From NCBI GenBank assembly GCA_963674945.2, contig CAXXWQ010000003.1, positions 1,856,001-1,920,000 of the forward strand: a stretch of 64,000 nt of DNA, written 5' to 3'. The position numbers and the translations under genes are program-made. The DNA is from an uncultured Desulfosarcina sp. (GTDB lineage: Bacteria; Desulfobacterota; Desulfobacteria; Desulfobacterales; Desulfosarcinaceae). The notes under the pieces were generated by a model, which was not told the origin of the DNA, did not search any database, and worked only from the letters and a program-made list of their open reading frames with translations. Below, in pieces: positions 24,380-32,583 of this stretch (within the stretch, counting starts at the first letter, position 1; each line of letters opens with the position of its first letter).

Positions 24380-26125
24380 ATGAAACATGCCCGTCCCATC
24401 GAATTGAAAGACGCCTTCAAACAGGCAACCGATGACCAGGACAAAATCATACCGCCGGAAAAGACGGTGTCACGGGTGAAAAAGCAGATGCAGGCCATGG
24501 ATTCGAAAATCCTGGACCAAACCGTTCGAATCGACAACGGTCGTCTGGACATTCCCGTTTTTTTCAGCACCTGCGGTCACGATGCGTTAAAAGTCATCGG
24601 CACAAAAAAGCAGATGGGCAAGGGGGCAACACCGGCACAGGCCGAGGCCAGCGCAGTCATGGAACTGGCCGAGCGATTCAGTTTTTTCAGTTTCTATCAA
24701 AATGACGCGAACACTTGTTTGGGCACGTATGGACAATTCGCCCGTGAAGCCATCCCCTTCGAACAAATTGCCAAATCGGTTCACGACGAATCCGACGAAC
24801 TTGCGATCTCCCGAAAGATTTTCGAAGGACTGCCCTTGCGGTGGACCGGTGCCTGGAGCCTGACCAGGGAGAAAGCGGTCTTCGTGCCCCTGGACTGGTT
24901 CTATGCCATTAATGCCTTCAATGGCCCGTCTGCCGGCAACTGTGTGGAAGAGGCACTTTGTCAGGGAATCTGTGAAATCGTCGAGCGCCACGTATCATCC
25001 ATCATCAGCCGCCAAAAGATTGCCACCATGCGGATCGATCAAGCTTCGGCAACGGATCTGTGCGTACGCCAGATGCTGGACAAATACGCACGTGCCGGCA
25101 TTCGTTTGGCCATCACCGATTTCACCCTGGACATGGGCATTCCTTCGGTGGGTGTCTTGGCATACGATCCTTCCACCTTCCCGAATAAGAGCGAAATCGT
25201 ATGGACCGCCGGCACCACCCCCGGTCCGGAAAAGGCCCTGAGCCGGGCGCTTACGGAAGTCGCCCAACTCGCCGGGGATTTTAGCACCGGATCCAATTAC
25301 GTGGCCTCGGGCCTACCCAAATTTTCGCGTCTGGAAGATGCCGCCTACGTGATCAATGCCCCGGGCAACAGACGACTGGACGAATTGCCGGACATTTCCC
25401 ACCCGAACATCCGCCATGAGGTGCAGGCTTGCATCCAGGCGCTGGCCCAGCGGGACTTCGAGGTACTGGCGGTGGATACCACCCATCCGAAACTGGCCGT
25501 TCCCGCTTTCTACACCATCGTGCCGGGCGCCCATTTCCGGGAACGCGCTGCCGGTACCAGCGTGGCCATGTTCGCCGCCAAGCTGACCATGGAACGCTTC
25601 GCACCCGACGAGGCCATCGGCCGCCTTCTGGATATGGATCGGCTTTTGCCCGGCAAGTACTTCATCCAGTTTTATTTGGGCAATTGCCATTTGGAAAAAA
25701 ACGATCCGAGAAAGGCCCTAACCCATTTCGAAAAAGCCCTGGACCTGTCGCCGACGGGCCAGGACATTGTCAGCATCTACTCGTACATGGGTGTGTGCCA
25801 CAAAGAGATGGGCCAGTATGACAAGGCCCTGACCGTGCTGGCCAAGGGCGAAAAACGGGATGACCAGCGAACAGACATCCACAACCTCATGGGATTTTGC
25901 CACTTCATGCAAAAAAATCACGAAGCGGCCATCCGAAGCTTCGAAAAGGTAATCGCCTTGGATCCCAGTTCAGCCATCGACTATGCCAACATCGCTTCCA
26001 ACTACCGGGACATGGGGAAAAAGGACGATGCCATTCGCTACTATCGCCTGGCCCTGGAACTGGACCCGACCATCGCGTTCGCCCGGGAGAACCTCACGCG
26101 GCTCATTGGCAACGGGTCGAATTGA
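24380..26125 (+). CDS. YcaO-family protein with C-terminal TPR repeats
   Basis: GKGATPAQAEASAVMELAER, NGPSAGNCVEEALCQGICEIVER and ALTEVAQ ATP-binding motifs; about 4 TPRs at the C-terminus. Confidence 0.9.
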   Translation: MKHARPIELKDAFKQATDDQDKIIPPEKTVSRVKKQMQAMDSKILDQTVRIDNGRLDIPVFFSTCGHDALKVIGTKKQMGKGATPAQAEASAVMELAERFSFFSFYQNDANTCLGTYGQFAREAIPFEQIAKSVHDESDELAISRKIFEGLPLRWTGAWSLTREKAVFVPLDWFYAINAFNGPSAGNCVEEALCQGICEIVERHVSSIISRQKIATMRIDQASATDLCVRQMLDKYARAGIRLAITDFTLDMGIPSVGVLAYDPSTFPNKSEIVWTAGTTPGPEKALSRALTEVAQLAGDFSTGSNYVASGLPKFSRLEDAAYVINAPGNRRLDELPDISHPNIRHEVQACIQALAQRDFEVLAVDTTHPKLAVPAFYTIVPGAHFRERAAGTSVAMFAAKLTMERFAPDEAIGRLLDMDRLLPGKYFIQFYLGNCHLEKNDPRKALTHFEKALDLSPTGQDIVSIYSYMGVCHKEMGQYDKALTVLAKGEKRDDQRTDIHNLMGFCHFMQKNHEAAIRSFEKVIALDPSSAIDYANIASNYRDMGKKDDAIRYYRLALELDPTIAFARENLTRLIGNGSN

Positions 26126-26436: not shown

Positions 26437-26781
26437 ATGGATCGAGTAGCAGTTATCGGATGCGGCGCCTACATGGACAGCGGGTACGGATGTCCGGGTG
26501 AGTGGCGGTGCCTGAAAGCGGCAGCCCTGGGTGAGGGGAAATTCGAGAGTCCGGCCCAAGTGGTCTCCTTTGTCAAATGCGAGTGTCCGGGAAGAGCCGT
26601 ACTGCCAACCGTTGGCATGGCGGCCAAACTTTCACAGATCAAACCGGATAAGATTTATCTCAGTTCCTGTCTTGTAAATGCCAAACCAGGCTGCCCCTAT
26701 ATGTCGGCCGACGAACTGGCAACGATGCTGGAAGGCAAGTTCGAGGTGCCGGTTGTTAAAGGGACCCACGACTACCACTAA
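26437..26781 (+). CDS. CGGC-domain Cys-rich metal-binding protein
   Basis: IGC..GCPGEWRCLKA, CECPG, LSSC, GCP, terminal GTH. Confidence 0.8.
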   Translation: MDRVAVIGCGAYMDSGYGCPGEWRCLKAAALGEGKFESPAQVVSFVKCECPGRAVLPTVGMAAKLSQIKPDKIYLSSCLVNAKPGCPYMSADELATMLEGKFEVPVVKGTHDYH

Positions 26782-29192: not shown

Positions 29193-30299
29193 ATGCCCAA
29201 CCGTATCGGACACATCGATATTGCAAAAGGAATTTCGATTATTCTTGTGGCACTCTTTCACAGCAATTTGTCATCTTATTTCCCCCAAATAATAGGCCCC
29301 ATGGCGCTATTTCGACTGCCGCTTTTCTTCTTTCTTTCAGGTGTCTTCTTCAAATCCACCATGGCGCCGAATGTCTTTTTCTGGAAAAAATTTGATGCAT
29401 TGCTCAAACCCTATTTCGCAACATTAATCGTTGTATCAATCATTTCTACCCTTTATGGCGGAGGGGTTTATCTTGGGCAATTGAAAGGATTGGTATACGG
29501 AAATGGGTCTACCATCAATTGGCTATGGCTCCCCATGTGGTTTCTCCCCCATCTTTTTGCGGTTTATTGTTTCGTCTATCTGATTTTCAGATATACACCA
29601 TTTCAAAACAGTTCTTCGATCATCCGGTATGGCGTCCTTTTTGTTATGATAACGGTCGGCTCCTATTTTATCGATCTATTCTGGCAACTCGACATCACTT
29701 TATTTGGAAAAACGAGGCAGTTGCCGGGGCTCCCTTTCAGTACCGACATTATTTTTATCAGTTCGTTCTTTTTTGCCATGGGCGCATTGATGAAACAGAA
29801 GGTTGTTTCCTTTCGTCCCAATCCATATTGGTTGATGTTCTCTTTGGTGCTCTTTTTTTTCATTGCATCGGAAACGGAAGCGTACATCGACCTGAACGCC
29901 AGATATTACAACCTGCCCATTATTGCTACGATTGGCGCTGCCTGTGGGATATACATGATCCTTACCATCTCTTTTCACATCGACAGCCTTCCCAAGTTGT
30001 TTCCGATAAAAAAAGCCCTTTTGGCGTTTGGAAGTTCAAGCTTATTCATACTCATCTTTCATTTTTATATCTATTACAATATCTATGAAGTACTTTATCG
30101 ACTCGGTGGCAGTGAGCCAAATTTTATTCTCACAATACTGGCATTCCTTACGAGCATCACAGCACCACTGATGATAAGGGGCCTCATATCCAAAAGTGAA
30201 ATACTCTCTCTATTCTATTTTCCTATGCAATCCAATTCATTGGCCAAACGGATGCTGCAAAACATGCCATTGTGTCTCAGCAGGCAGGTAAGCAAATAA
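29193..30299 (+). CDS. Acyltransferase family 3 (membrane O-acyltransferase)
   Basis: RIGHIDIAKGISIILVALFH, FRLPLFFFLSG, WFLPHLF; many TM helices; AT-rich. Confidence 0.88.
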   Translation: MPNRIGHIDIAKGISIILVALFHSNLSSYFPQIIGPMALFRLPLFFFLSGVFFKSTMAPNVFFWKKFDALLKPYFATLIVVSIISTLYGGGVYLGQLKGLVYGNGSTINWLWLPMWFLPHLFAVYCFVYLIFRYTPFQNSSSIIRYGVLFVMITVGSYFIDLFWQLDITLFGKTRQLPGLPFSTDIIFISSFFFAMGALMKQKVVSFRPNPYWLMFSLVLFFFIASETEAYIDLNARYYNLPIIATIGAACGIYMILTISFHIDSLPKLFPIKKALLAFGSSSLFILIFHFYIYYNIYEVLYRLGGSEPNFILTILAFLTSITAPLMIRGLISKSEILSLFYFPMQSNSLAKRMLQNMPLCLSRQVSK

Positions 30300-30645
30300 A
30301 AGACCCTTTGTTCAATTTTCAAACCGATGGTTAACTGGTCACGCTGTTCGTTTCAATCGATGCCATGGGCTATTAAGGGCAACATCCTTTCATCGGGAAA
30401 GCATCCGTAAAAAAACGGACAACGGCTATCGATACCCGATTCATCCGAACCAGAGAAATACCTCTTGACTCCATTGGATGTTTTTCAGAATATCGTAATC
30501 ATCGCAAGGCCTGATATTTGATGGCCTTATCGATTTTTTGCTTTTTCCTTGATGTGATAGCATTCCTTTTTCACAGAAGTTTTGATGCGGTCTTTTGAAA
30601 GACCGGTAGTTACGACTACCTATAGCGCGATGCGGAGGTTCGGCC

Positions 30646-31989
30646 GTGACCCCTCGTAAAAACGGAACTATTGTGAGCGCCCTTCTTTTCCTGGCTTTCT
30701 TATTGATTTCGGCGCCTGCTTTAACGGCATCATCAAAAGAAGACAGTCAGTGTGTCCTCTGCCACACCAACCTGAAGAGCCTGATCCGGTTGTGCTGGAA
30801 AGTGGAAAAAATAAAACCGAAACCCAAACAATCCAGCGAGACTGCGGGTGAGGGGTGAGGCGGCCCCTTGGCTCCGTTGGAGCTGTATCAGAAAATATAT
30901 GTGGATCCGGGTTTCCTTGAAACCAACCATGGCCAAATTCCTTGTAATAACTGCCACGGCGGCAACCCCGACGATTCCAACTGGCTAACGGCCCATGATT
31001 CGATGATAAAAGATCCCACAACGAGTAAAGCCCTGGCCATTTGCGGAGAGTGCCACGAAGAGATCGCCGCCAAAGCGGTAAGCAGTCTGCACTATACGCT
31101 GGCACCTTTTTCGCGCGCCATTGCAGCCAGAATGGGCGATGTACGCAAAGACGCCCGAAAACTTGTCGATCACGCCATGGACATCCATTGCAATACCTGC
31201 CATGCCAGTTGCGGACAATGTCATGTCAGCAGACCGGATTACGTTGGCGGTGGATTTTTGGCAAAGCACCATTTCAAGAGAACACCGGACATGGATACGA
31301 CGTGTGCCAGTTGTCACGGTGGTCGTGTCTACGGAGAGTATACGGCGGCAAACGAAGACAACGAAGCCGATGTCCACTTCGACGACGAAGAAATGACTTG
31401 CATGCAATGCCACAAATCACCCGAAATGCATGCGTGTGCAACGGATGTCACCAGCCGTTTCGAACTTCCGGAACGACCGAGATGTCTGCAATGCCACGAG
31501 GACGTTGTCGCTGAGAAGCCGAAGACGCAATCACACAAAATTCACGGAAACAAGGTGGCCTGCCAGGTATGTCACGCCCAAGCCACGAAAAATTGTTACA
31601 GTTGCCACGTGGGCACCGACAAAAAGGGGCTTCCCTATTTCAAGTGCCGCAAAACCGCGTTTGACTTGAAAATCGGACTGAATCCCAGAAAAACCAAAGA
31701 CAGACCCTATGACTGGGTCGTCTTGCGGCATCCGGCTGCAGATCCGAAGATTTTCGATCACTATGTAAAAAACAGCCTGCCCGATTTCAACGCCCTTCCT
31801 ACCTGGAAACTGGATACCCCGCACAGCATCCGACGTTCGACGGCACAAAACAAGGAGTGCAATAATTGCCATGGCAAAAAGGAGTTGTTTTTGACCCGAG
31901 ATGACGTTGCTGATGGAGAAGTCGAAGCAAACCGTAGCGTGATCGTTCCGGAATCTAAAATTCCCGAACCTGTTACATCCAAACCATAA
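30646..31989 (+). CDS. Exported 11-heme cytochrome c, predicted selenoprotein (UGA at codon 71, 30856-30858)
   Basis: Signal peptide and CVLCH before the TGA, ten further CxxCH after it in the same frame; SECIS-like hairpin immediately downstream; GGAGGT RBS before GTG. Confidence 0.82.
30859..30885 (+). promoter_or_regulatory. Candidate bacterial SECIS element
   Basis: GGCTCC-GTT-GGAGCT hairpin; G-initiated apical loop begins 17 nt after the UGA. Confidence 0.65.
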
Positions 31990-32001
31990 AGGAGGTTGAC
32001 C

Positions 32002-32583
32002 ATGAAAAGTGTCAGAAGAGAAATTTCTTTGGCATCGGTGTTTGTCTTTCTTTTTGTCTCCATCGTTTCGGCCGGCTACCAGTATACGGCCAACAAGGAT
32101 CATCTCGGGGGGGATCTGACACCTGAAGATGCCTATAAAATGATGGAGAAAGATCCGGAGCACGTTTTTCTCGTGGACTGCAGAACGCGCGCGGAATATC
32201 AATTTGTGGGTCATCCCGAGGGGTCGTACAACATTCCACTCCGGTTTCTGACAAACAACGTCGGCAAAAAGGGGTACACCGAAGAGATGAATCCCAATTT
32301 CGGCAAAGATCTGCTCGCCCGATTCAACCCGGAAACCGATACCCTCATTATCCTGTGCCGAAGCGGCAATCGGAGTTGTACAGCATGCAACGAAGCCATC
32401 AAGGCCGGCTTTGCCGAAAACAAGGTGTTTAATATGATGGGAGGATTTGAAGGGGGAAAGAACGAAAACAAGAACAGCACCTACTATGGCAAACGATGGG
32501 CCGGTGGATGGAAACTGGAAGGTCTTCCCTGGACGTATAAAATGGACCAAAAGCTGATGTATCAACCCGATATGAAGGGGTAG
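32002..32583 (+). CDS. Exported rhodanese-domain sulfurtransferase
   Basis: Sec-pathway signal peptide; LVDCRTRAEY..GHP; active loop LCRSGNRS; AGGAGG RBS just after the cytochrome stop. Confidence 0.88.
   Translation: MKSVRREISLASVFVFLFVSIVSAGYQYTANKDHLGGDLTPEDAYKMMEKDPEHVFLVDCRTRAEYQFVGHPEGSYNIPLRFLTNNVGKKGYTEEMNPNFGKDLLARFNPETDTLIILCRSGNRSCTACNEAIKAGFAENKVFNMMGGFEGGKNENKNSTYYGKRWAGGWKLEGLPWTYKMDQKLMYQPDMKG

Follow-up and report, generated by a model that had tools for sequence, protein, structure and literature searches.

What is made from a cytochrome gene whose frame is interrupted by a single TGA? In the window, the whole 64,000-nt stretch of DNA from an uncultured Desulfosarcina sp. 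that was analysed here, the gene at 30646–31989 on the forward strand begins with GTG, 7 bases behind the ribosome-binding site GGAGG (30634–30638), and ends with TAA, its only in-frame stop being a TGA at codon 71 (30856–30858). Translation with table 11 cuts it there into 70 aa and 373 aa, the split that the earlier note had foreseen for gene callers. That note took the two open reading frames to be parts of one exported selenoprotein of 447 aa, an 11-heme c-type cytochrome with a predicted selenocysteine, Sec71, in the segment SSETAGEG-U-GGP. The layout that it described is borne out: the two frames are in common register, a hydrophobic signal-like segment, judged by eye, occurs only in the part before the TGA, and the 11 CxxCH motifs (at residues 36, 100, 133, 182, 189, 220, 252, 280, 306, 317 and 405) fall one before and ten after. 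The predicted signal peptide covers approximately residues 1–28 (30646–30729, cleavage site placed by eye), and the N-termini of homologs are likewise hydrophobic. The sole motif before the TGA, that of heme 1 (C36-x-x-C39-H40, 30751–30765), is invariant in all 112 loci that cover it.

The codon itself appears sound. Contigs from all four sequencing runs cover the TGA and agree on its letters, making an assembly error unlikely; the runs represent at most three samples of one study, and two may be the assembly's source. A search with the read-through protein gave matches in 44 of 401 sampled genomes of the phylum (~11%), and 46 of the 47 matches carry a single TGA, the remaining one being a fragment without the junction. 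We aligned 116 loci, comprising the window gene, L001, L016–L044, the best 80 of 544 confirmed metagenome loci and five further genome loci. Two end before the junction; the TGA lies at the same column in all 114 that cover it, within G-E-G-U-G-G or a close variant. These loci were retrieved with Sec-type queries and include near-duplicates, with 49 full-length sequences remaining below 72% identity. Neither TAA nor TAG occurs at the junction in any of the 114, and the true ends of the 116 genes are TAA in 43, TAG in 40 and TGA in 24, with nine lost at contig ends. In four loci (L059, L060, L062 and L115) the junction has the variant form G-E-C-U-A, a vicinal Cys-Sec pair, and several Cys forms of the family have C-C there; no rhodanese lies near L059 or L060.

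Relatives lacking the TGA are informative about both the integrity of the protein and the residue at its junction. Of 61 genomes in the window organism's own family, 11 match, eight with the TGA and three without; the latter three have TGT, in E-G-C-G-G, and an adjoining rhodanese-like gene. Further out, a profile search of 1.8 billion representatives supplied a set of distant homologs, of which the best 150 were taken, and 64 of these cross the junction in one frame. Such unsplit homologs carry both parts together and show that the two parts of the cytochrome are one protein. The residue at the column is Cys in 28 of the 64 and another in 36, among them Trp (6), Ser (5), Leu (4), Tyr (4), His (2) and Met (2), so that distant members evidently manage without a chalcogen. 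The earlier note had asked whether the column is always TGA or Cys; it is so in the 114 loci and the three TGT relatives, and the variable non-Cys residues that would count against a recoded codon turn up only among the distant unsplit homologs. A further suggestion, that Sec71 is redox-paired with the Cys of IRLCWK (Cys50), is rejected: Cys50 occurs in just 6% of 112 loci, and in none of 11 Cys-type and none of 15 other unsplit homologs.

Bacterial SECIS elements are hairpins just 3′ of the UGA with a G in the loop. A SECIS-like hairpin of this kind lies at 30869–30885, with the core GGCTCC-GTT-GGAGCT (30870–30884) and its loop G at 30876, the 18th base after the TGA. A G occupies this position in 108 of the 114 loci and is missing in all three TGT relatives. 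Across 28 distinct sequences the stem is 88.3% paired, with two-sided changes in five of seven pairs, and its pairing was matched by none of 500 shuffles, a test inflated by relatedness; slid controls gave 36–47%. Among relatives, A-P-L-E is swapped for E-P-L-A, which is an exchange of the two stem arms and indicates that the protein sequence bends to the RNA. By folding energy the hairpin does not stand out from chance (four folds, z −0.9 to +0.7): it is the minimum-energy fold in only two of four windows, and the 33 bases following the TGA have a best fold that is lower by 0.3 kcal/mol. The loop-G hairpin reported by the earlier note is thus present and covarying, unremarkable in energy alone, and its support is comparative.

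The source genome also holds the means of decoding the codon, and all four components that the earlier note wanted sought, selA, selB, selC and selD, were found: selA, two selB genes, selD (with a TGA of its own) and two tRNA(UCA) genes, one of them a canonical tRNA-Sec. Two other genomes, G115 (L143; 98% complete) and G276 (L022; 93% complete), have the TGA gene and hairpin and no selA match.

Could the TGA nevertheless be a true stop between two translationally coupled genes, with TGAGG doubling as the ribosome-binding site of the second? A possible GTG or TTG start stands at +13 in 85 of the 114 loci, behind GAGG at a 7-base spacing, and the best 120 of 1,122 database matches, all truncated forms, each cover at most 83% of the query. 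The same start is missing in the other 29 loci and would fall at the base of the hairpin stem, the unsplit homologs hold both parts in one frame, and the second product would have ten heme motifs and no export signal. With the absence of TAA and TAG from the junction and heme loading without export both left unexplained, coupled genes are a most improbable account. Nearly as hard to sustain is the proposal that the UGA is read mostly as Cys, giving Cys71, through a selC*-type tRNA-Cys(UCA) and SelB*. In its favour, the second selB of this genome adjoins a non-canonical tRNA(UCA) that starts with A and ends with U-U-CCA, fitting the description of the selC* tRNA-Cys of Desulfobacterales (A1:U72, U73 and UCA; PMC5389517), and Cys forms of the cytochrome family occur. 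Against Cys decoding, a canonical tRNA-Sec, selA, selB and selD are all encoded, and there is no cysS-like match beside the second selB. The locus concerned (G000:C3:570739-572793, outside the window; A1 and U73 in the tRNA) also has a YedE-like gene nearby and resembles the selC*/selB* Cys opal-suppressor locus described in PMC5389517. A second cysS match over the cut-off lies at G000:C1:209660-211018, within a 763-aa open frame.

The conserved TGA column, the covarying hairpin, the sel genes and the Cys relatives together lend strong support to one exported 447-aa selenoprotein. We consider it very likely, as read from these comparisons, that the UGA is decoded as selenocysteine, and have little doubt that the hidden selenoprotein gene is real. 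SelB would, very probably, bind the hairpin and insert Sec71, after which the whole chain would be exported and loaded with 11 hemes, giving a protein of ~53 kDa.

To what does this protein belong? Databases contain it mainly as a 370-aa piece that lacks the signal and often goes by the name of hypothetical protein or sulfurtransferase. NCBIfam 20.0 does not include the family, nor does Table 1 of PMC13188914 (2026), which lists 119 families of prokaryotic selenoproteins; the Sec cytochromes in that table are ExtKL, GSU2204 and the family of octaheme tetrathionate reductase (OTR). The words 'cytochrome' and 'heme' do not appear in the main texts of deep-Sep (PMC12013277) and BSepDB (PMC13326102), and no description of the family was found in the literature covered, most subscription journals lying outside that scope. 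The family is probably uncatalogued.

The multiheme core itself, hemes 2–11 (30922–31980), is recognizable by profile, structure and alignment comparison as OTR/ExtN-like. Hemes 3–9 and 11 are kin to those of OTR and ExtN by sequence and predicted fold, a comparison that places the core in an OTR-like superfamily with a homologous heme core and fold. OTR of Shewanella oneidensis (PDB 1SP3, TIGR04315) is the top structural and PDB profile match, its heme motifs and several spare His being colinear with those of the cytochrome over 294 columns. The motif of heme 4 (C182–H186, 31189–31203) aligns with C74–H78 of the catalytic heme II of OTR, making heme 4 the candidate catalytic heme. The two proteins differ in heme number, with eight in OTR and 11 here (two N-terminal and one internal extra), and in the active site: the Lys56 ligand of heme II and the N-F-C/U motif before it in OTR are missing from the cytochrome, whose aligned segment shows no conserved Lys or Cys and has Arg162 as its invariant residue. 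The cytochrome has no TIGR04315 match at E 0.01, and the two over-cut-off OTR genes of the genome lie elsewhere. Selenocysteine occurs in the OTR family too, with TGA at the Cys64 column in four of 11 OTR sequences, one of them in the source genome, and a Sec form of that family is annotated in GenBank (PMC13188914 Table 1). The source-genome case is the gene at G000:C4:2870082-2871350, on the reverse strand and outside the window, which reads TGA at the N-F-C column, giving N-N-F-U, and has a hairpin following it; L150, L153 and L155 share both features. Sec71, by contrast, sits on an added Gly-rich arm N-terminal to the OTR-like region, at a position not homologous to Cys/Sec64 of OTR. In the cytochrome and the Sec forms of OTR, selenium is thus placed on this type of heme chain by two independent routes.

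ExtN, the decaheme protein of the Geobacter-type ext operon (NF040967), is a distant homolog (hhalign probability 98.8, E 9e-17, 27% identity over 292 columns). It shares with the cytochrome the paired CxxCH-xx-CGxCH motifs and the C-terminal PH-x-x-R...CxxCH, and its operon likewise encodes a rhodanese, ExtH. In the two ExtN proteins compared there is no Sec arm, no in-frame TGA in the matched region and no heme 10. The cytochrome gives no NF040967 match at E 0.01 (cut-off 200), and the genome gives none at E 1e-30.

The Sec multiheme cytochromes of Geobacter, to which the earlier note had pointed, serve as an analogy and are not the homolog family. MccSep/ExtKL of Geobacter sulfurreducens (NF040886, PDB 9WT8) is likewise a periplasmic multiheme c-type cytochrome, split in annotation at a UGA and with a SECIS-like hairpin. 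It has five hemes, one of them a His/Cys239 heme, and carries Sec325, within D-G-U-P, on an Ig-like domain at its C-terminus (PMC13510729), whereas the cytochrome has 11 motifs, Sec at position 71 and, across the aligned loci, no conserved non-motif Cys. The MccSep profile matches the cytochrome weakly (E 0.0066); there is no NF040886 match at E 0.01 for the cytochrome and none over the cut-off in the genome, and identity with MccSep/ExtKL was rejected on this ground together with the heme count and Sec position. As for the Sec cytochrome GSU2204 (NF041027), the protein studied here shows neither a match to its profile nor an MtrB/PioB-type barrel. The theme of a Sec multiheme cytochrome is here built on an OTR/ExtN-like core.

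The gene neighbourhood adds a partner. A rhodanese gene (32002–32583, forward strand; PF00581, E 1.7e-15) starts 12 bases past the cytochrome stop, behind its own ribosome-binding site AGGAGG (31990–31995), and encodes a single domain with a signal-like N-terminus and the loop CRSGNRS (32356–32376). Neither this neighbour nor the OTR/ExtN kinship figured in the earlier note. We mapped 102 loci, of which 79 have at least 1.4 kb downstream, and identified rhodaneses by BLAST clusters with representatives checked. A rhodanese-like gene lies directly downstream in 62 of the 79 and within 4.5 kb in 72; seven have none nearby, two of those being short upstream. The partners are of several types, with single or double domains, and in three homologs (P0122, P0128 and P0239) the protein is itself fused to rhodanese domains in tandem. 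A cytochrome b takes the place of the rhodanese downstream in 11 loci, and genes for formate dehydrogenase-N and ResB/ResC are often near. This PhsC-like cytochrome b subfamily comprises L075, L086, L092, L094, L096, L105, L109, L116, L119, L067 and L112, and the four of its proteins that were inspected have 13 hemes, two of them extra, and a C-terminal hydrophobic helix.

Other neighbours are more scattered. Beside family members lie two likely selenoprotein genes, each a partial match: one GSU2204-like, of MtrB/PioB type (L138:4657-7105), and one UshA-like (L063:8211-9002). Upstream in the window, all on the forward strand, are a gene for a YcaO-family protein fused to TPR repeats (24380–26125), followed by one for a small CGGC-domain protein (26437–26781), and a gene for an acyltransferase-3 membrane protein (29193–30299), which by eye looks richer in AT than the DNA around it and does not belong to the recurring neighbours of the cytochrome.

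What might Sec71 do? By a slight preference, we read the protein as an enzyme that reduces sulfane sulfur in the periplasm, whether from persulfide, polysulfide or thiosulfate, with the rhodanese encoded beside it as the supplier. The flexible Gly-rich arm, placed between hemes 1 and 2, would bring Sec71 to a heme lacking a sixth His; the family has nine near-invariant spare His for its 11 hemes, which leaves room for such a site, and the docking heme would most likely be heme 4, the counterpart of OTR catalytic heme II. There Sec71 could attack the S–S bond of a rhodanese persulfide or of polysulfide to form a selenopersulfide, which the chain of bis-His hemes would reduce with release of HS−, the conserved Arg162, Arg227 and Arg361 binding the anionic substrate. 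The electron donor might be menaquinol or formate, with a membrane cytochrome b or other cytochromes of the periplasm as the route. The chemistry is modelled on MccSep, in which polysulfide is reduced by a Sec beside a His/Cys heme (PMC13510729). A bolder version, which we regard as unlikely, has Sec71, on a swinging, rhodanese-fed arm, fill the sixth position at a c-type heme and so create a His/Sec heme c, and makes the family a widespread terminal thiosulfate/polysulfide reductase.

The reductase reading is weakened by the 36 distant unsplit homologs without Cys and by a mass per heme, 4.2 kDa, that is wire-like, falling in the electron-transfer range of PMC7096707. The same facts favour a protein that is truly read through and serves mainly as an electron wire or redox store, with Sec71 as an axial ligand or tuning residue setting a low potential and catalysis left to the rhodanese or another partner. 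Some of the residues replacing Sec are heme-ligating (His, Met and Tyr among the homologs), the closest profile match is ExtN, uncharacterised here, and a possible family member in Dethiobacter strain Z-1002 is ~7.6-fold higher on siderite than on ferrihydrite (PMC10376724 supplement file 4). What speaks against a wire is that Arg227 and Glu231 are invariant in the Sec forms and decay in forms without Cys or Sec, and that the coupling to rhodanese spans lineages and several unrelated rhodanese types. Gly-flanked Sec, moreover, is typical of mobile catalytic loops and on general grounds points away from a wire, which we judge an unlikely role overall.

Less probable again are two shifts of substrate or direction. 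The protein might have selenium or tellurium compounds as its substrates, whether to reduce selenite, to detoxify or to scavenge Se for making selenoproteins, in place of a part in sulfur respiration, given its homology to ExtN and fusion to ExtH, both named for a selenite/tellurite reduction operon, the YeeE/YedE transporters upstream in L001, and, in two genomes from a single genus (L145:5340-6725 and G001:C83:4149-5501), a selA gene ~1.5 kb upstream. Few of the mapped loci have such a selA or YedE neighbour, and MccSep, of the same ext operon, does reduce selenite but prefers polysulfide sevenfold in Vmax/K0.5 (PMC13510729); we hold a selenium or tellurium role improbable. More doubtful still is a Sec/heme site running oxidatively on sulfide, polysulfide or thiosulfate, as in disproportionation, after the manner of TsdA and SoxAX, whose His/Cys hemes perform the reverse chemistry (PMC13510729). 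Direction is not readable from sequence, yet OTR and MccSep, the closest relatives that have been characterised, both act as reductases, and one subfamily has genes for a quinol-linked cytochrome b and formate dehydrogenase-N, which fits electron supply.

For the sulfane-sulfur reductase, Dethiobacter alkaliphilus offers a lead. It has no psr and no dsr (PMC5609068), and SelA, SelB and SelD are in its proteome (PMC10376724). Its DealDRAFT_1917, described as a ~39-kDa protein with ten hemes, no signal peptide, PF14537 and PF13435 domains and an adjoining rhodanese, was once annotated thiosulfate sulfurtransferase, a label given to many fragments of the cytochrome family, and is upregulated on thiosulfate (PMC10376724). 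We think it fairly likely, comparing descriptions only, that DealDRAFT_1917 is the post-UGA fragment of a family member. Its authors treated it as a complete SirA-like protein, and selenocysteine goes unmentioned (0 occurrences) in PMC10376724. In the supplement to that paper, WP_008516925.1 (39.3 kDa) is 2.4-fold higher (q 0.03, three peptides); from its mass and accession order, this row would be DealDRAFT_1917. The Z-1002 twin rises on siderite, which is no sign of a link to sulfur.

A corrected frame brings in a selenoprotein family that current catalogues apparently lack and provides a testable candidate for polysulfide or thiosulfate respiration or recycling in anaerobes without the known molybdenum enzymes. 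If the bolder version were true, the family might supply the first heme c with His/Sec ligation, a selenium counterpart of the His/Cys site in TsdA and SoxA; a cytochrome P450 is the sole case of natural Sec–heme ligation found in the literature covered (PMC11703216). It would also be the enzyme, hidden by annotation, that is missing from sulfur reducers without Psr, Phs or Dsr, such as Dethiobacter alkaliphilus.
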